This document shows, piece after piece, positions 51,090 to 62,086 of a DNA stretch of 64,000 nucleotides (the first letter of the stretch is position 1; every line of letters starts with the position of its first letter). Source of the stretch: a phage. Below the pieces are notes generated by a model, which worked only from the letters and a program-made list of their open reading frames with translations, ran no database searches and had not been told where the DNA came from. The stretch lies in assembly GCA_017676145.1 (NCBI GenBank), contig GCA_017676145.1_3628.1, one strand, 5' to 3'. The position numbers and the translations under genes were made by a program.

Positions 51090-51166
51090 TGGTCTCCACG
51101 GAGTGATTCGAACACTCGACCTCCTGATCCCAAATCAGGCGCTCTACCAAGCTGAGCTACGCGGAG
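51090..51166 (-). tRNA. tRNA-Pro (anticodon UGG)
   Basis: Manual cloverleaf: acceptor CTCCGCG/CGTGGAG (C1-G72), D-arm GCTC/GAGC, anticodon loop TTTGGGA, T-arm GAGTG-TTCGAAT-CACTC, encoded CCA. Confidence 0.8.
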
Positions 51167-51177
51167 TATTTATAATT

Positions 51178-51252
51178 TGGTGGCCCTGGGTGGAATTGAA
51201 CCACCGTCTGGCGATTATGAGTCGCTTGCTTGAACCTTCCAGCTACAGGGCC
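51178..51252 (-). tRNA. tRNA-Met (anticodon CAU; elongator Met or Ile2 type cannot be distinguished)
   Basis: Manual fold: acceptor GGCCCTG/CAGGGCC, anticodon loop CTCATAA, T-arm GGTGG-TTCAATT-CCACC, encoded CCA. Confidence 0.75.
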
Positions 51253-51253
51253 A

Positions 51254-51329
51254 TGGTGCTGATGGCAGGACTTGAACCTGCAACCTATTGATTACAAATC
51301 AATTGCACTACCGATTGTGCTACATCAGC
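51254..51329 (-). tRNA. tRNA-Thr (anticodon UGU)
   Basis: Manual fold: acceptor GCTGATG/CATCAGC, D-arm GCAC/GTGC, anticodon stem ATTGA/TCAAT with loop TTTGTAA, T-arm GCAGG-TTCAAGT-CCTGC, encoded CCA. Confidence 0.8.
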
Positions 51330-51335
51330 AAAAAG

Positions 51336-51440
51336 GTGCTAGGTGATGGAATCGAACCACCTATGTATTCAACGACTACCTCGTCTATTTTCAGGATTAA
51401 AAATCCTCGCCCTTGCCAAAGGGCTTACCTAGCGCAATAT
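51336..51440 (-). ncRNA. tRNA-like element, non-canonical (pseudo-tRNA or small stable RNA)
   Basis: Has 7-bp acceptor-like stem GCTAGGT/ACCTAGC, D-like arm GCCC/GGGC and T-arm GGTGG-TTCGATT-CCATC, but no 7-nt anticodon loop and ~30 nt extra between anticodon-like and T arms; CCA not fully encoded. Confidence 0.35.
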
Positions 51441-51531
51441 GTTGACCATGTGGCTAGTCGGCGATGACGACTGTAACATTTGATAATCCGGTTCTGCTTC
51501 CGGCTTTCGCTTAATTACAAGGTCAACAATG

Positions 51532-51622
51532 TGGCGGAGAGTAATGGAATCGAACCATCATCGAGTCATCCTCAACGGGACGGTTTTCAAGACCGCTTGA
51601 GCACCATTGCTCCCTACCCTCC
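51532..51622 (-). tRNA. tRNA-Ser (anticodon UGA), type II with long variable arm
   Basis: Acceptor GGAGGGT/ACTCTCC, anticodon arm GCGGT-CTTGAAA-ACCGT nearly identical to E. coli tRNA-Ser(UGA) as recalled, ~20-nt variable arm, discriminator G, encoded CCA. Confidence 0.75.
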
Positions 51623-51736
51623 TTTATAAATTACACTGATAATGACACTGATTTTCGAGCAGTTAGTGACTAGTATAAACGACGATAAATATCAATGCCA
51701 TTATCTGTATGATTTATGCATTTAAAAATATAAATT

Positions 51737-51824
51737 TGGTGGTGAGTGATGGAGTCGAACCACCCGAATCGCAATGATAACAGATTTACAGTCTGCCCCG
51801 CTACCCCTACGGAATTAACTCACC
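51737..51824 (-). tRNA. tRNA-Tyr (anticodon GUA), type II
   Basis: Acceptor GGTGAGT/ACTCACC, anticodon stem CAGA/TCTG with loop CTGTAAA, long variable arm, T-arm GGTGG-TTCGACT-CCATC, encoded CCA. Confidence 0.75.
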
Positions 51825-51954
51825 TAAATACTAATATTTAAATTCTTTTTAAAATAGCTAGTGTTCTCACCACTAACTATGAGGTATCGGTAAAGTGGTT
51901 ACCGCCACTTGCCGAAGATTTACTCTGCTAAAGTAAGCTACATTAAAAAGAACT

Positions 51955-52029
51955 TGGCACCCCGTACTGGACTCGAACCAGTGTCAACGGCTTAGAAGGC
52001 CGCTGCTTTATCCACTAAGCTAACAGGGC
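51955..52029 (-). tRNA. tRNA-Arg (anticodon UCU)
   Basis: Acceptor GCCCTGT/ACGGGGT (two G-U pairs), D-arm GCTT/AAGC, anticodon stem GCGGC/GCCGT with loop CTTCTAA, T-arm ACTGG-TTCGAGT-CCAGT, encoded CCA. Confidence 0.7.
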
Positions 52030-54965: not shown

Positions 54966-55520
54966 TTACTCCCCGCTGTCAATAGCAAGACTCATTGCAA
55001 TACGGTATGCCTCTTCTAATGGTAAGAGTCTCCCCCACACATCCCAACCGACATCAAACTGCCTGCCAAACAACTGTTGCGTGGTTCCGTGAGCATGACC
55101 GAACAGTTGGACTGATCCGTGATGCTTTCTGTTCCACGTTGCAAACTGGTAATGACTCATACAGATCAAATTCTTGTTGTGGCGAAACTCGTAATAATCT
55201 ACAACCTCATGATAGAACTCTTTCATAATTCTGACAGTCGTCCTTGTGTCATGGTTGCCACGAACAAGAATAATATGTCCGTTCAACATATTTAGAATAT
55301 CTGGAAGTAAGTTGTTGATATTCTTATCATTAGTGCACGCAATATCCCCCAAGTGGAACACAGTGTCTGCAGGTGACACAACAGAGTTCCACTCGGTGAT
55401 GATTCCAGCATTCATACTGTCAAGATTGTGATCATACTGAGATCTGTGTTTTTGACACGAGTCAAACTCCATGACCCGCTGGTGGAGAAAGTGTGTGTCA
55501 CTTGTTACAAAGTATTTCAT
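54966..55520 (-). CDS. calcineurin-like metallophosphoesterase (phosphatase)
   Basis: Internal start MKYFVTSDTHF preferred over the listed 55625; motifs D-x-H (SDTHF), GD (LGDIA), GNHD, GHAH typical of the metallophosphoesterase fold. Confidence 0.65.
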   Translation of the reverse strand: MKYFVTSDTHFLHQRVMEFDSCQKHRSQYDHNLDSMNAGIITEWNSVVSPADTVFHLGDIACTNDKNINNLLPDILNMLNGHIILVRGNHDTRTTVRIMKEFYHEVVDYYEFRHNKNLICMSHYQFATWNRKHHGSVQLFGHAHGTTQQLFGRQFDVGWDVWGRLLPLEEAYRIAMSLAIDSGE

Positions 55521-55527
55521 ACATTCC

Positions 55528-55938
55528 TCATTTAAGTTTAATGCAGTTTTTAAGCTGGCGTTCCATACGATCCACGACCATGTCTGGAACATCATGAATG
55601 CTTTTATTACCGTGGCGGTTTTCAACCACGATTACGGTATAACTATACCCATGACTGATTGCCATGTCAACATATTCTTGCACATGTTTTTCTTTTGTAA
55701 ACGTATTACTTACCACGATACGGTCGTATCCCATACGCATCATATCTTCTACGTTATCTTTGCACCATTTTGCTGCAAGTGTTACTTTACTTGCATCCCA
55801 GTTGTAATTGCCGTCATCGTCGTACCAGAACATGTCGTTCTCAAAATGTGGATACAGACCTTCTAAAGATAGCGCATTTGCCAGTGTTGATTTGCCAGAC
55901 CCTGGTAGACCACGCACGATATATAGCATTTTAGACAT
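55528..55938 (-). CDS. P-loop polynucleotide 5'-kinase-like protein (T4 Pnk kinase-domain-like)
   Basis: ATG at 55938 with GGAGG RBS preferred over the listed 56094; LPGSGKST Walker A, ENDMF Asp, VVSNTF and VPDMVVDRMERQ blocks parallel T4 Pnk kinase motifs recalled from memory. Confidence 0.6.
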   Translation of the reverse strand: MSKMLYIVRGLPGSGKSTLANALSLEGLYPHFENDMFWYDDDGNYNWDASKVTLAAKWCKDNVEDMMRMGYDRIVVSNTFTKEKHVQEYVDMAISHGYSYTVIVVENRHGNKSIHDVPDMVVDRMERQLKNCIKLK

Positions 55939-56038: not shown

Positions 56039-56974
56039 ATGACAAATGAGGAACGTATGATGAAGTATTTTAATGCAGACGACCTAGTTGACAAAGGTCT
56101 TGTAACCAGCAGATATTACCCAGATCTTGGATTAAAGATCTATAAATATGCCAGAAAAGTATTTTACAACAATTTATGGCATTTGTCTCCTCGTTTGCTG
56201 GAGTGCCGGGGAATTGTTGTCGGTAATGAAGGAAATGTTGTGGCATGGCCCTTCACAAAAGTGTTTAACTTGGGAGAAAACTCCACCAACCTGCCTGACA
56301 ATAAGCTTGTGACGGCGGTAGAGAAAAAGAACGGATTCCTTGGTGTGGTATCATCTCATAAAGGTGAACTATTGTTCTCAACAACCGGATCTCTTGATTC
56401 TCCATATTGTAACCTCGCAAAGGAAACCATCCAGGAGCAATGTGGTAATTTAGATCTTATCAAGAAGGTTATGGGCAAAGAAAACATGACATTCATGTTT
56501 GAAATTTGTCACCCTTCAGATCCGCATATTGTTCAGGAAGATCATGGCGCATATTTGATAGGCTGCAGATATAATGATTCTGGAATAATGCTACCAGAAG
56601 CAGCTTTAGATGGGATTGCCAAACACCTTGGTGCAAAACGTCCTCACACTGTGCGTGAAATTCCGTTCAGCTATGCAAAAGAATTAGCTGCAGAAACAAG
56701 AGGTGAAGGGTATATGATTCGTAAGCCTTACTACCCTTATGACCTGCAGCTGAAGATCAAGTCTCCATACTATCTGGCACGGAAGGCCGTAATGAGGGGT
56801 AAGGCTTGGAAGATTTGGGATGATGATATCTTTAAACGTATTGACGAAGAGTTTTACGGCATGGTAAACTTCATTCGTAGCAATTACACAGAGGATGTGT
56901 GGAACTGCCTCCTGGAGCAGGAACGCCGTGAGATACTTGATTGCTATTTCCACAACGAGGACTATATGCAATGA
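56039..56974 (+). CDS. RNA ligase, T4 RnlA (Rnl1)-like
   Basis: Blocks LECRGIVV, KVFNLGENS, motif I VEKKNGF (K-x-N-G), motif IV EGYMIRK, motif V LKIKSPYY align with T4 Rnl1 as recalled; start may be the ATG at 56039 or 56057. Confidence 0.7.
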   Translation: MTNEERMMKYFNADDLVDKGLVTSRYYPDLGLKIYKYARKVFYNNLWHLSPRLLECRGIVVGNEGNVVAWPFTKVFNLGENSTNLPDNKLVTAVEKKNGFLGVVSSHKGELLFSTTGSLDSPYCNLAKETIQEQCGNLDLIKKVMGKENMTFMFEICHPSDPHIVQEDHGAYLIGCRYNDSGIMLPEAALDGIAKHLGAKRPHTVREIPFSYAKELAAETRGEGYMIRKPYYPYDLQLKIKSPYYLARKAVMRGKAWKIWDDDIFKRIDEEFYGMVNFIRSNYTEDVWNCLLEQERREILDCYFHNEDYMQ

Positions 56975-57321
56975 AGAAGTTGATTGTGTGGCTTGATGAT
57001 TTTAGAGATCCGTCAGATTATGGACTCCCAGACGCTCTGTGGCTAAAGAATTCTTCTGAGTTTATGGATTTCATCGATGACAAGGGAAAGCTATATAGAC
57101 GCGTTTCTGAGTGGCATTTTGACAGCGACTTGGGAGAAATTTTTGAAGGATACGATTGCTTCTGCATACTAGAGGAAAAATTTGTATTTGGTAAGCCTCC
57201 TGTAGTTGACAACGTGAAGATTTTCGTGCATACTTCTAACCCATCAGCGGCTCGTAAATTCATGCTTGCTGCTGACTCGTTTAAAAAGTTTGGAATAGAG
57301 ATTAAACAAAACATCTACTGA
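56971..57321 (+). CDS. hypothetical protein (116 aa)
   Basis: ATG at 56971 overlaps the ligase stop (ATGA); no motif recognised. Confidence 0.5.
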   Translation: MKKLIVWLDDFRDPSDYGLPDALWLKNSSEFMDFIDDKGKLYRRVSEWHFDSDLGEIFEGYDCFCILEEKFVFGKPPVVDNVKIFVHTSNPSAARKFMLAADSFKKFGIEIKQNIY

Positions 57322-57329
57322 GGACACTT

Positions 57330-58091
57330 ATGCGACGACTGATCATTATCTCCGGCGCTGGTTTGAGCGCTGAATCTGGTATCCCAACTTTCCGATCTGG
57401 TTGCACTGCAATGTGGGAGAATTTCAGCATCGATGAGGTGTGTAACATCCACACCTTTGCCAAGAACTACTATAAGGTGCATGACTTTTACAATGCACGG
57501 CGTGTAGCTCTGGGCAGTGTTGATCCTAACATTGCACATCTCCGGATCGCTGAGTGGTATTCCCGCTGGTCTGGTCGTGTGATCAACCTGACCACCAATG
57601 TAGATGATTTGCTGGAGCGTGCTGGTGTAAAACATGAAGATATTTTACATGTCCACGGATATTTGCCAGAAATAGTCTATGAGGATGATGAAGGGAGTGA
57701 CGTCATTAAAGACATTGGATACTCTGAGGTAGATGCAAGCGAGTATACTTGGGTCAAGCCTAATGTGGTGTTCTTCGGAGAAGTAGCTCCGAAGTATACA
57801 GACATGTATGACCTGTTGACTTCTCTTACGAGTAATGATATGGTTATCCTTGTAGGGTGTTCCAACACAGTTATCAATTTTAACTGGGAGCTATTCCCTG
57901 CCTGCAATAAGGGAACCAAACTGCTGATCGTTAACAAATACGACTCACAGCAGCTAGGGGAGAATGGTATTTCACGTAGTGATATTTACCAATATGAGGA
58001 TCGCGGCATCCCAGTTTGGTTTAACGGGGCGGTTGATGCTTTCTCTGATAAAACATTCATTGAGACCGTAGAAAACTTTATGGAACTTTAA
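57330..58091 (+). CDS. Sir2 (sirtuin)-like NAD-binding protein lacking the zinc ribbon
   Basis: ISGAGLSAESGIPTFRS (GAGxSxxSGIPxFR), TTNVDDLLERAG (TQNIDxL-type), HVHG catalytic-His context, VVFFGE and GCS blocks; no CxxC pairs between them. Confidence 0.7.
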   Translation: MRRLIIISGAGLSAESGIPTFRSGCTAMWENFSIDEVCNIHTFAKNYYKVHDFYNARRVALGSVDPNIAHLRIAEWYSRWSGRVINLTTNVDDLLERAGVKHEDILHVHGYLPEIVYEDDEGSDVIKDIGYSEVDASEYTWVKPNVVFFGEVAPKYTDMYDLLTSLTSNDMVILVGCSNTVINFNWELFPACNKGTKLLIVNKYDSQQLGENGISRSDIYQYEDRGIPVWFNGAVDAFSDKTFIETVENFMEL

Positions 58092-58104: not shown

Positions 58105-58818
58105 ATGCTGAATACCAAATTAATTGACAACCTGGAAAAACTGTCCCAACCTGAAAACTACCTTTGGTCTGCCAACTGGGTGGAAAACTGGAACCGTGTG
58201 GCAGCTAAAGTGAAAAAATCATACACACCATTCGAATTACAGCTTAGCTTCATTGAGGAAGAGTTCAATGAAGTTTTGGAAGAGCTGGAGAAAGGTGATG
58301 GCGGAGATCACCTGCTAAAAGAGGCCTGCGATCTTCACGTTGTCACAAGTTATGCCGCTTATCTTGTTAATGATAATCACGAAAAGTGGTCAAACCTGTT
58401 TGATAATCCACAGGGTCTTAAGTTCAAGATCGGTGAGTTCTATGATACACTGATCGCTGCGAAAAACACCTCTAAGCAAAAAGCGTCCGCTTACCGCTTA
58501 GCAGAGTTGTCAACAGCTTTGCTGTTCCAGCTTCGCGGCGATGTGTGCGGGATGATGCGTAAGGTTCTCAAATCGAATGACAGCAAGTTTGCACGAGTCA
58601 ACCATCTACGGTATTCACACGGTGCCAGTGCAGATATGCCTGCTGAACAACTCATCGAGTTGGAGATTAAAGATCTTGAGCGACGCTTTGATGGTCGATA
58701 TGAAGGTTTTGTTGCTAAGGAAGAATTCTACAACGGAAATAAAGTTATCATATTCCTCGACAGTAAAGGTAAGATTATGAAGCCTTCAAGCTTCAAGGAT
58801 GTAACAGAATATATTTAA
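58105..58818 (+). CDS. hypothetical protein, possibly MazG-like nucleotide pyrophosphohydrolase
   Basis: Acidic helical EEEFNEVLEELEKGD...LLKEACDL segment resembles MazG EExxE/D motifs; weak. Confidence 0.35.
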   Translation: MLNTKLIDNLEKLSQPENYLWSANWVENWNRVAAKVKKSYTPFELQLSFIEEEFNEVLEELEKGDGGDHLLKEACDLHVVTSYAAYLVNDNHEKWSNLFDNPQGLKFKIGEFYDTLIAAKNTSKQKASAYRLAELSTALLFQLRGDVCGMMRKVLKSNDSKFARVNHLRYSHGASADMPAEQLIELEIKDLERRFDGRYEGFVAKEEFYNGNKVIIFLDSKGKIMKPSSFKDVTEYI

Positions 58819-58824
58819 CAACAT

Positions 58825-58855
58825 AGCCGGGGCGATCCCGGCTTTACTTGTTTCG
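58825..58855 (+). terminator. rho-independent terminator
   Basis: AGCCGGG-gcgatc-CCGGCT hairpin followed by TTACTTGTTTC after stop of 58105..58818. Confidence 0.5.
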
Positions 58856-58882: not shown

Positions 58883-59191
58883 ATGTACAAGCACTCCAGA
58901 GACCTTGAAAACGATGCTGTGTTTGGAGATCAGATGAAAGAATTGGTTAAACTTATAGGTAGGATAGAGGATAAGTTTGACACTAAGATCTACATCGACA
59001 GCAAAGTATTCAACCACAAAATATGGACAAATCTGTGTGTTGGACTACATGGAGATAAGGATGTGGTAAATTTAGTTGTAATTAAGTTCATAGTGTGGCA
59101 GAATAGAACCATAAGTTATTACGATCCGCACCTACTTGTTTACCCGATAAAAGATCTATTAGAGAAGGAGGACTGCAATGCCGTTATTTAA
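58883..59191 (+). CDS. hypothetical protein (102 aa)
   Basis: ORF with upstream AGGTAGAAAG RBS-like sequence. Confidence 0.45.
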   Translation: MYKHSRDLENDAVFGDQMKELVKLIGRIEDKFDTKIYIDSKVFNHKIWTNLCVGLHGDKDVVNLVVIKFIVWQNRTISYYDPHLLVYPIKDLLEKEDCNAVI

Positions 59192-59447
59192 TCTTGCTAA
59201 ACCTGTAGAAGCACACCAGTTTGATGGAAGCTCTTCATCAGTATCTGATCTGCAACGGTGGATTGATACAGGTGTGTTTACATCGTCACCTGTTCGAACC
59301 AGAGATATTCTTCGCATGTGTGAGCTTGTCGAGCCGTTTGGTAACCTTGTCTTGTACCAAGGGGATTGGTTAGTTGACTTTATGGGAGACTGGTTGGTAA
59401 TGAGCAAAGAAGAGATGTTTAAAATTTTTAAGGAAGAGGCTGAGTAA
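59178..59447 (+). CDS. hypothetical protein (89 aa)
   Basis: Overlapping co-oriented ORF; stop overlaps ligase start (TAATG). Confidence 0.45.
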   Translation: MPLFNLAKPVEAHQFDGSSSSVSDLQRWIDTGVFTSSPVRTRDILRMCELVEPFGNLVLYQGDWLVDFMGDWLVMSKEEMFKIFKEEAE

Positions 59448-60730
59448 TGCATCAGATCAAAACAACACTGTACGCACTGAACAAAGATGGCAGCTACCAA
59501 CAGTGGAAAGTATTCACGGATGGTGATAAGGTTATCGTAGAGTTTGGCAAGCTTGATGGTAAACTGCAATACAAAGAGACGATCTGCACACCTAAGAACG
59601 TTGGTCGTGCCAATGAAACTACAGCTGAGCAACAGGCTGAGCTGGAAGCGATCAGTAAGTGGGAAAAACAAGTCCGTCTGGGGTATGTTGAAAATATGGA
59701 AGATTGCGAGCAGGGTGTTGACCTTTTACCCATGCTGGTGCATGACTACCTGAAGCGTGGAAAGGCACTTAAATTACCTTGCTGGATCTTGCGTAAGTTA
59801 GATGGCCTTCGTCTACTTGTTGTTTTCCAAAATGGTGAGCCTAAATTTATTTCCCGTGGTAATAAGTCCTACCCTATTCAAGGAAAGCTTCTGGAGCAAC
59901 TTCGTTCTTTCCACTTCACCACCGGGATTAAACAGCTCGACGGAGAGATCTATATTCATGGCCTGCCTCTGCAGAAAATAGTGTCTCTTGCTAAACGGTG
60001 GCGCACACAGGAAGAGATTCAGGCCGAGATCGATAAAGACTACGAGGCAGATAAAAAACGCCGTCATGCCGCAATTAAGGCAGGCTTATCAACATACAAA
60101 AACTTCAACAAGGTAGATATTCCTGTTGATGTTGAGCCTGTTCGTGATGATTTGCGTTACGGTGGGTACTGTAGCTACGATCTAGAGTATCACATTTTTG
60201 ATATTCCTAGTGACAAGGTGTGGTGGGATCCAGAAACAGAATCTGGACGCTGCAAGGATCTTATGGATGTAGAAGATACCATTACCACTCTGATGCTTGA
60301 CCATATCAAGGTTGTTGACGCAGAGCTTGCGTACACAGTTGATCATTGCGAAGAATCTGTCGGTGTATTCATGTCCGAAGGGTATGAAGGTACTATCATG
60401 CGTAACTTCTGTGGTAAATACGAATACGGTCAGCGAACATCTGAAGCATTGAAATGGAAAAAGTTCAACGATGCTGAGGTGAAAGTTATTGACGTTGAGA
60501 AAGATAAGAATGATGAAGGTGTTCTTATCTGTGTTGACAAGGAAGGTATTGTTGTTAAAATGAAGATGAAAGGTACGCACGAGGAGCGTAGCTATGACAG
60601 GATGCAGGAAATGATCGGCAAGTTTGTCACCTTCAAATATCAAGCAAGGACAGAAGACAACAACTACCAATTCCCTGTCGGTATCTGCGTCCGAAATGTT
60701 AACCCAGACACTTGGGAGGTGCTGGAATAA
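59447..60730 (+). CDS. ATP-dependent DNA ligase
   Basis: Nucleotidyltransferase motif I KLDGLR, motif III LDGEIYI, motif IV EGTIMR, motif V LKWKK; 427 aa. Confidence 0.75.
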   Translation: MHQIKTTLYALNKDGSYQQWKVFTDGDKVIVEFGKLDGKLQYKETICTPKNVGRANETTAEQQAELEAISKWEKQVRLGYVENMEDCEQGVDLLPMLVHDYLKRGKALKLPCWILRKLDGLRLLVVFQNGEPKFISRGNKSYPIQGKLLEQLRSFHFTTGIKQLDGEIYIHGLPLQKIVSLAKRWRTQEEIQAEIDKDYEADKKRRHAAIKAGLSTYKNFNKVDIPVDVEPVRDDLRYGGYCSYDLEYHIFDIPSDKVWWDPETESGRCKDLMDVEDTITTLMLDHIKVVDAELAYTVDHCEESVGVFMSEGYEGTIMRNFCGKYEYGQRTSEALKWKKFNDAEVKVIDVEKDKNDEGVLICVDKEGIVVKMKMKGTHEERSYDRMQEMIGKFVTFKYQARTEDNNYQFPVGICVRNVNPDTWEVLE

Positions 60731-61621: not shown

Positions 61622-62086
61622 GTGGAAGACGGACGTTTAATGAAGTCTGAACGCAGGCTTATTGTGCAACTGATCCCAGAAACAGCTTGGTATAATAACC
61701 TCCGAAACGCTGTGAAGAAGAGTGAGTGGGATAAGATCCGTAAGAAGTGCTACAGAGAAGCCAACTACACTTGCGAGGTGTGTGGTGGCAAAGGTAGCAA
61801 ACACCCTGTGGAGTGTCATGAACTTTACACCTTCGAAGAGGGGGTGATCCGGCTTGTCGGACTGATAGCCCTGTGCCCAGATTGTCACACATCGGTGCAT
61901 CCTGGGTTAGCAAATATCCGTGGGAAATATGCTCAGGCAGTTAATCAGTTGGCTAAGGTAAATAAGATCACTAAGGGCATGGCTGAAGCTTATTACCGAG
62001 ACTGCTTTGCAGAGTGGCGGGAGCTTAGTAAAGTTCCGGAATGGAAGACCGACTTTTCGTGGATAGAGGGTTACCTTGATGGCTAA
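61622..62086 (+). CDS. HNH-type zinc-finger nuclease-like protein (free-standing)
   Basis: CEVCGG...HPVECHELY...LCPDCH arrangement (CxxC...H...CxxCH) resembles HNH nucleases; GTG start with GAGGAGGA RBS. Confidence 0.45.
   Translation: MEDGRLMKSERRLIVQLIPETAWYNNLRNAVKKSEWDKIRKKCYREANYTCEVCGGKGSKHPVECHELYTFEEGVIRLVGLIALCPDCHTSVHPGLANIRGKYAQAVNQLAKVNKITKGMAEAYYRDCFAEWRELSKVPEWKTDFSWIEGYLDG

Follow-up and report, generated by a model that had tools for sequence, protein, structure and literature searches.

The question raised by the stretch of DNA analyzed here, a 64,000-nucleotide phage contig (NCBI GenBank assembly GCA_017676145.1, contig GCA_017676145.1_3628.1; hereafter, the window), is what a phage does with a sirtuin. 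Sirtuins are among the best-studied NAD+ enzymes, and there is no phage-encoded one with a demonstrated function. We find that the open reading frame (ORF) at positions 57330-58091 on the plus strand encodes, as judged from its sequence, a real and apparently active NAD-consuming sirtuin, which in our tentative reading is a lysine deacylase that serves the RNA-repair genes surrounding it. The annotation of this gene, the zinc-less state of its product and its RNA-repair context were all previously on record, and the window provides another near-identical copy from a Vequintavirus.

Profiles, alignment and a structure model agree that the ORF encodes a zinc-less sirtuin of 253 amino acids (aa) with a canonical class III-like fold. 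Its start is preceded, at a distance of 5 nt, by a GAGGA ribosome-binding site that overlaps the stop codon of the preceding gene. The protein matches the Pfam SIR2 profile (PF02146) over profile positions 1-178 of 180, with 94.4 bits against a cut-off of 24, and the phage family phrog_2162 with E=1e-108. The initial annotation had read a sirtuin NAD-binding signature from the letters, and each of the motifs it listed is indeed found in the ORF, all on the plus strand: the NAD-binding loop GAGLSAESGIPTFRS (residues 9-23; 57354-57398), TTNVDDL, a variant of the TQNxD motif in which Gln is replaced by Thr89 (residues 88-94; 57591-57611), the catalytic His109-Gly110 (57654-57659), which aligns with the catalytic H147 of CobB, and the FFGE substrate/NAD loop (residues 148-151; 57771-57782). 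Alignment with CobB adds Y54-N-A-R57-R58 (57489-57503, plus strand), the class III Y-x-x-R motif that corresponds to CobB Y92/R95; the string FYNARR is identical in the two proteins. Among 78 family members, G9, A10, G11, S16, F21 and R22 of the NAD-binding loop are invariant, as are Y54, R57 and R58, N90 and D92, H109, and F148, F149 and E151, and GAGLS is likewise present and invariant. Altogether, 41 alignment columns do not vary across the 78 homologues at 50-60% identity. Because the dN/dS ratio is as low as 0.05-0.18 among five Vequintavirus alleles, the gene is evidently kept under purifying selection. The protein is acidic (pI 4.7; family median, 5.1). Its C-terminal extension (residues ~205-253; 57942-58088, plus strand), delineated by alignment coverage and by the model, which places helices at residues 216-224 and 241-252, is found mainly in the close phage clade, and few 50%-cluster representatives align past residue ~205.

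The AlphaFold2 model built on the 78 homologues has a pLDDT of 90.2 and a pTM of 0.88. Foldseek ranks CobB first among its structural matches (TM 0.74-0.83), followed by Af1 and SIRT5, and by sequence the closest solved proteins are Escherichia coli CobB (E=2e-21), SIRT5 and the archaeal Af1/Af2. The profile search and structure prediction that had been proposed along with the initial annotation, together with the CobB alignment, therefore uphold both the sirtuin fold and the catalytic His, whereas a non-sirtuin Rossmann fold is ruled out by the matches of the model to solved sirtuins. With its best sequence and structure matches, CobB (1S5P, 6RXJ), SIRT5 and Sir2-Af1 (1ICI), the phage protein has in common GAGxS, the catalytic His, FGE, Y-x-x-R and the tunnel residues. 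Read from aligned residues alone, the acyl-lysine pocket is kept (CobB numbering first: Y92=Y54, R95=R57, I131=V91, H147=H109, V187=V146/147 and F190=F149), and its residues vary little or not at all among 78-121 family members. The FGE-x-A-P-x-Y loop is common to the sirtuin clade of the window and its zinc-containing relatives. Unlike CobB, SIRT5 and Af1, however, the phage protein is devoid of the Cys4 zinc site, has TTNVD for TQNxD, GCS for GTS and V-I-N for V-Y-P, and adds the C-terminal extension of ~50 aa. The equivalog cut-off of the NCBIfam CobB/deacylase models is missed, with the best of them, NF001753, scoring 120.9 bits against 243, that is, about half. Taken together, sequence and model indicate that this is a canonical CobB/SIRT5/Af1-like sirtuin of the deacylase type that lost its metal ligands.

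One further residue of the pocket deserves mention. Cys38 (57441-57443) is invariant in the phage clade, and 72 of 87 zinc-containing relatives also have Cys there; the CobB counterpart is Ala76, one of the sites mutated in engineered CobB variants (PDB 6RXM, 6RXQ). Judging by this conservation at an acyl-pocket position, Cys38 could be redox-sensitive or a determinant of specificity.

The loss of the zinc site can be followed in some detail. Only four cysteines are present in the protein (25, 38, 177 and 192), and none falls within residues 109-150, the segment of the CxxC...CxxC zinc ribbon; the earlier observation that the CxxC pairs of the zinc module are missing thus holds, there being no Cys between HG and FGE. 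In their place, alignment and model show a degenerate, Cys-free module (residues 111-142; 57660-57755, plus strand) that keeps the 'IGY' string and a beta-hairpin. The column of the first zinc ligand is occupied by Y117 and that of the second approximately by S123, and the second CxxC knuckle is deleted; the small-domain hairpin (residues 110-128) is nevertheless modeled with confidence, its strands (110-118 and 124-128) at a pLDDT of ~95. Of the 121 closest homologues, which are at least 48% identical, not one has four cysteines between HG and FGE. We searched 1.84 billion representatives exhaustively and recovered 5,283 relatives. When the best 149 of these were classed by the presence of three or more Cys between HG and FGE, a cysteine-rich zinc site was found in 88 and was absent in 61, while most of the 149 share Cys38, the first Tyr of Y-x-x-R and a K-P-N-V-V-F-F strand, and many have 'IGY' within the small domain.

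A rough neighbour-joining tree without support values, which was rooted on CobB and from which the small-domain columns were excluded, implies a zinc-containing ancestor and about nine changes of state, and places the phage sirtuin in one large Cys-less clade that holds 40 of the 61 Cys-less sequences. Of these 40 clade members, 36 have Thr at position 89, as opposed to Gln in 73 of 87 zinc-containing relatives; in addition, the clade has G(C/S/A)S for GTS and frequently carries Asn in place of the Pro of the V-Y-P substrate loop. The Cys-less members with a readable genomic context are all in phages. The two zinc-containing relatives with a readable context are, in turn, both cellular, one amid chemotaxis and redox genes (P0151) and the other adjoining a lipoate ligase gene on a Mollicutes-like contig (P0136), and cellular sirtuins in ordinary chromosomal contexts reach up to ~49% identity to the phage protein. 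The main new detail of this analysis, then, is that zinc loss seems to have arisen within a CobB-like lineage, in which phage members are Cys-less and the sampled cellular relatives zinc-containing, and that it came with the Gln-to-Thr and GTS changes.

A Sir2/CobB protein without the zinc ligand has been described in KVP40-like vibriophages, with salt bridges proposed as the replacement and with T5 and other phages listed as carriers (Skliros et al. 2016, Front Microbiol 7:1807). The vibriophage protein is likewise CobB-like, with a conserved catalytic His and acetyl-lysine site and a finger domain lacking zinc ligands, but it belongs to a different phage family and has NAD+ salvage genes as neighbors, whereas RNA-repair genes surround the present sirtuin. 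The natural and repeated loss of an 'essential' zinc site in an otherwise canonical sirtuin makes this family a useful case for the study of protein stability.

The sirtuin gene is the third in a compact unit, Rnl1, cREC, Sir2 and MazG-like, that is delimited by start/stop overlaps and a hairpin. The unit opens with the gene for an Rnl1-type RNA ligase (56039-56974, plus strand; PF09511, E=3e-15; phrog_562), for which we used the start codon annotated in the phages HMD-6 and FV3. Its stop codon is overlapped (ATGA) by the start of the gene for a cREC (cyclic-phosphate processing receiver domain) protein (56971-57321, plus strand; PF20274, E=5e-13), which is annotated in the same way in HMD-6. 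Downstream of the sirtuin lies the gene for a MazG-superfamily (all-alpha NTP pyrophosphatase) protein with an extra C-terminal domain (58105-58818, plus strand), recognized by a phage family match and a structure model (pLDDT 75.8 on a shallower alignment, with one good model of five). A GC-rich, terminator-like hairpin (58825-58843, plus strand), recognized only by its match to a consensus and with 6 GC pairs in its 8-bp stem, closes the unit. Divergently transcribed, on the minus strand, are the genes for a P-loop polynucleotide 5'-kinase-like protein (55528-55938; AAA_33, E=2.5e-10), named '3'-phosphatase 5'-polynucleotide kinase' in HMD-6, and for a calcineurin-like metallophosphoesterase (54966-55520; PF00149, E=3e-6; also in the HMD-6 record). 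Thus, the RNA ligase, cREC, kinase, MazG-like protein and phosphoesterase are all encoded within 2.4 kb either side of the sirtuin, and the RNA ligase and putative MazG-like gene that had been noticed beside it prove to belong to the same unit. Together with the oppositely oriented kinase and metallophosphoesterase, this unit makes up a phage module for the repair of RNA (tRNA) breaks. An ATP-dependent DNA ligase gene recognized by profile matches (59447-60730, plus strand) follows farther downstream; in Mydo-like loci it adjoins the sirtuin. Searches of PDB sequences with the Rnl1, cREC and MazG-like proteins returned no relatives.

This arrangement corresponds to a neighborhood that has been defined previously. 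In the type 2 neighborhood of Iyer et al. (2022, Viruses 14:1977), for which Escherichia phage V5 and Proteus phage Mydo serve as the prototypes, the sirtuin is accompanied by a T4-like tRNA ligase, cREC, a nucleotide kinase, MazG and, sometimes, a calcineurin-like phosphoesterase; the gene, the phage group and the partner set are the same as here, and nothing substantive differs. To that picture we add further companions of the set, namely, the DNA ligase and a pair of small ORFs, as well as the cysteine-less state of the clade and a map of the active-site differences from cellular relatives. In our survey of 56 viral loci carrying the sirtuin, all or most of the repair set lies beside it in 13 loci (rV5-like, Mydo/KpS8-like and others), in which gene order is changed and sirtuin identity drops to as low as 43%; the partners kept across these loci are Rnl1, cREC, the kinase, the metallophosphoesterase, the MazG-like protein and the DNA ligase. 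The sirtuin of Mydovirus KpS8 is 56% identical to that of the window. In L041, L049 and L053, cREC was not detected beside the sirtuin.

Other members of the clade keep different company. A HAD_SAK_2 'Swiss-army-knife RNA repair' phosphatase is encoded within ~1 kb of the sirtuin in 28 T5-like loci; the sirtuin of T5 itself, T5.102, is 57% identical to that of the window and has been placed in the same phage RNA-repair-associated sirtuin clade (Iyer et al. 2022). In the T4-like metagenomic phage P0130, the gene order is RlaP, Sir2, NADAR, and in the metagenomic phage P0131, where an AlkB-like gene is also close by, Sir2 overlaps the gene for a PTH2 peptidyl-tRNA hydrolase; this overlap prompts the speculation that the substrate is related to aminoacyl-tRNA. 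Jumbo-phage sirtuins have 2H and Nudix-cREC proteins as partners (Iyer et al. 2022). A T4-like locus (L056), in which the sirtuin is 47% identical over residues 1-182, has a NAMPT gene directly upstream of it. The RlaP-NADAR, PTH2 and NAMPT contexts lie at 4917-7181 of L061, 6001-7100 of L065 and 4057-6705 of L056. Three phages of ~150 kb (L032, L034 and L046) show essentially no informative Pfam matches among the neighbors of the sirtuin. In total, 41 of the 56 viral loci have an RNA-repair context, which amounts to two or three independent lineages only. The sirtuin clade is nonetheless widespread, being represented in rV5-like, T5-like, Mydo-like and several T4-like phages as well as metagenomic ones, and it occurs in genetically tractable model phages, namely, T5 and Vequintavirinae that infect K-12.

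With these data in hand, our preferred, although tentative, interpretation is that the sirtuin is a lysine deacylase serving the repair module, with an acetyl or an acidic acyl group, such as succinyl or malonyl, as the moiety removed. An acyl-lysine substrate is suggested by the retention of the tunnel residues, Y-x-x-R and FGE-x-A-P-x-Y, all shared with cellular relatives at up to ~49% identity, and by the acidic pI; that the clients belong to the sphere of repair or translation is suggested by the RNA-repair gene context. Chemically, an oxygen of the substrate would attack C1'' of NAD+ with departure of nicotinamide, and His109 would then activate the ribose 2''-OH, resolving the adduct. 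The enzyme would, for instance, protect lysines from modification, be they lysines with a nucleotide-binding or catalytic role in the adjacent ligases or those of translation and RNA proteins; to name the catalytic lysines of the RNA and DNA ligases on either side as its clients is only a guess. If the protein is such a deacylase, phages manage the lysine acylation of their own repair machinery or of host proteins.

Several observations weigh against the deacylase interpretation. The variable partners of the sirtuin (HAD_SAK_2, RlaP, NADAR, PTH2, 2H and Nudix-cREC) are mostly enzymes of RNA-end phosphates or of ADP-ribose rather than obvious acyl-protein clients, and within 6 kb of the sirtuin in the T5-like loci there is no ligase; this pattern of partners better fits the proposal, discussed next, that the sirtuin acts on RNA. 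The Gln-to-Thr, GTS and Pro-to-Asn changes and the remodeled small domain may, by the look of the alignment, reflect a shift in substrate binding. Finally, in the literature on phage sirtuins we found no enzymology or genetics, only the computational work of Iyer et al. (2022) and Skliros et al. (2016): a 2026 paper on NARP3 mentions only the anti-phage Sir2-HerA system, and a review of bacterial sirtuins mentions neither zinc nor phages. We hold the deacylase interpretation only slightly above the RNA-directed alternative, with which it is nearly tied.

Under that alternative, a prediction of Iyer et al. (2022), the sirtuin would remove 2'-phosphates from RNA in the manner of KptA, as a KptA/Tpt1-like RNA 2'-phosphotransferase. 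We regard this as possible but somewhat less probable than deacylation. In the corresponding scheme, a host nuclease leaves a 2',3'-cyclic phosphate, from which cREC (or a 2H, HAD or metallophosphoesterase enzyme) generates a 2'-phosphate by opening the ring; the 5'-OH is phosphorylated by the kinase and the ends are joined by Rnl1, so that the pathway would be in the style of fungal Trl1/Tpt1, with the sirtuin replacing the ART-fold enzyme. The very type of neighborhood for which the prediction was made is the one in the window, with all five listed partners present, and independent lineages pair the sirtuin clade with differing RNA-end or ADP-ribose enzymes (HAD_SAK_2 in the 28 T5-like loci, RlaP-Sir2-NADAR, the PTH2 overlap). 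A 96%-identical genome, moreover, has no annotated KptA, and it carries a macro-domain gene at another site. Sirtuins and Tpt1 also share the logic of their two-step chemistry: in both, an oxygen attacks C1'', and attack by the 2''-OH then yields a 1'',2''-cyclic species. Clade-specific changes in the active site, that is, Gln to Thr89 and the remodeled small domain, point in the same direction. Tpt1/KptA would thus be a functional analogue, by virtue of its NAD+ use, two-step logic and company of RNA ligases and cyclic-phosphate enzymes. Its ART-like fold, however, is unrelated to the Rossmann fold of the sirtuin, so that equivalence is a prediction only; no Tpt1/KptA ART-like fold or profile was detected in the phage protein, for which SIR2 is the sole Pfam match.

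Other considerations speak against an RNA substrate. Action on a nucleic-acid phosphate is not known for any sirtuin, the residues of the narrow, hydrophobic acyl-lysine tunnel and Y-x-x-R are fully kept, and the protein is acidic. The metallophosphoesterase of the module could conceivably strip 2',3'-phosphates outright, in which case a 2'-phosphotransferase would be unnecessary. The activity of cREC is itself only predicted, and, as indicated above, cREC was not detected beside the sirtuin in three loci. On balance, a sirtuin that spends NAD+ on removing the 2'-phosphate of broken or re-ligated tRNA, or on ADP-ribosylating it, appears to us a plausible minority option. An RNA-directed sirtuin would be the first of its kind, and rV5-, T5- and T4-like phages would have gained healing and sealing of the Trl1/Tpt1 style from unrelated folds; loss of the zinc ribbon and the Gln-to-Thr replacement would then be adaptations that admit RNA instead of a peptide. 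A role in RNA repair would imply both a new class of substrates for sirtuin chemistry and a new counter-defence against nucleases. Since Iyer et al. (2022) already put the idea forward, what would be new is its demonstration.

An improbable third explanation dissociates the sirtuin from RNA repair and ties it to NAD+ salvage: as a general deacetylase of host metabolism, it would deacylate host enzymes such as acetyl-CoA synthetase and thereby boost the supply of energy and nucleotides. Such a role has been proposed for the zinc-less Sir2/CobB of KVP40-like vibriophages, the gene for which is transcribed during infection (Skliros et al. 2016). The conserved deacylase residues are compatible with it, and so is the NAMPT gene directly upstream of the sirtuin in the T4-like locus L056. 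However, this explanation does not account for the persistence of the sirtuin in sets of RNA-repair genes across rearranged genomes; furthermore, the host already has CobB, and no NAD+ salvage genes are annotated in the relative HMD-6.

Less likely still is the reading given in the initial annotation, under which the protein is a defence-like NADase, or a protein or DNA ADP-ribosyltransferase, employed for host takeover or against NAD-based defences. The zinc cysteines are absent, as in defence SIR2s, and some sirtuins do ADP-ribosylate (literature cited in Iyer et al. 2022). The likeness to the defence SIR2 NADases (ThsA, DSR1/2, SIR2-HerA, SIR2-APAZ/pAgo and Avs5) is confined to membership in the Sir2 superfamily without zinc cysteines, and these are not the closest structural neighbors of the phage protein. 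The proposed resemblance fails because Foldseek ranks CobB, Af1 and SIRT5 on top and because PADLOC reports nothing meaningful for the sirtuin, its only match being PDC-S65 with 13 bits over 34 residues. Neither is there a fused or adjacent defence partner (SLOG, HerA, pAgo/APAZ, STAND or the DSR C-terminal domain); this is a single-domain protein with RNA-repair enzymes as neighbors. From the macrodomain-linked, ADP-ribosylating SirTM sirtuins (5A3A), the phage protein, at 13% identity, differs in keeping the canonical catalytic His, and the operon has no macro-domain gene, whereas SirTM operons encode a macro-domain protein and a lipoylated target of the GcvH-L type; the lack of such a neighbor agrees with the type 2 neighborhood of Iyer et al. 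(2022). HMD-6 has a macro-domain gene ~50 kb away. Lastly, loss of a structural metal site could suggest that a cobB-like gene captured from a host is now decaying or has become non-functional, but this extremely improbable reading is effectively refuted by the dN/dS of 0.05-0.18, the 41 invariant columns, the confident fold and the retention of the gene in several phage families.

The remaining observations concern the origin of the window, the labels of related records and the surroundings of the repair module. The segment 56000-59500 is 90-96% identical to sequences in 121 phage genomes on deposit, nearly all of them from Escherichia phages, among which FV3 belongs to the Vequintavirinae; by sequence, the window is a Vequintavirus (rV5/FV3-like) coliphage. 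The deposited records name the sirtuin gene 'putative Sir2-like protein', 'NAD-dependent protein deacetylase of SIR2 family' or 'sirtuin domain NAD-dependent deacetylase'. Eighteen of the 121 records, also at 90-96% identity, were deposited as Campylobacter phages (host C. jejuni in 16), which suggests mislabeled hosts or contaminating coliphages. Several gene labels are displaced, too. T5.105 of phage T5 (NC_005859, L058; 7142-7648) is called 'Sir2 (NAD-dependent deacetylase)' in RefSeq, yet it is a HAD_SAK_2 RNA-repair phosphatase (PF18143, E=4e-20), the true T5 sirtuin being T5.102; in phage S127 BCL3, the label 'putative Sir2-like protein' is attached to the MazG-like gene, and in Klebsiella phage vB_Kpn_3, the sirtuin is labeled 'tail assembly protein'.

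A cluster of phage tRNA genes identified by ARAGORN and Rfam (51090-52029, minus strand) lies ~3 kb beyond the phosphoesterase gene and is a possible set of clients for the repair module. For three of its elements, all on the minus strand, the two tRNA finders agree only weakly or not at all. ARAGORN reports a 99-nt 'tRNA-???' with a four-base anticodon (atcc) at 51335-51433, for which Rfam is weakly supportive (35.5 bits); this element may be a pseudogene, a tRNA interrupted by an insertion or intron, or a tRNA of the frameshift-suppressor-like kind. The tRNA-Ser(tga) at 51532-51622 is found by ARAGORN and not by Rfam, and the tRNA at 51740-51824 by Rfam (39 bits) and not by ARAGORN; the HMD-6 cluster has an annotated tRNA-Tyr.

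Between the MazG-like gene and the DNA ligase gene are the two small plus-strand ORFs that accompany the repair set, at 58883-59191 and 59178-59447 (102 and 89 aa), neither of which has a family match. Because they occur beside the same set in Mydo-like and other distant phages at 30-46% identity, they may be uncharacterized parts of the module. Farther downstream, the segment 60731-60871, between the end of the DNA ligase gene (60730) and the start of the lysozyme gene (60872), lacks the HNH endonuclease gene that HMD-6 has between the same two genes (L001, 10852-11568); another HNH-like ORF is present in the window at 61622-62086. The difference from HMD-6 looks like an insertion polymorphism of a mobile homing endonuclease.

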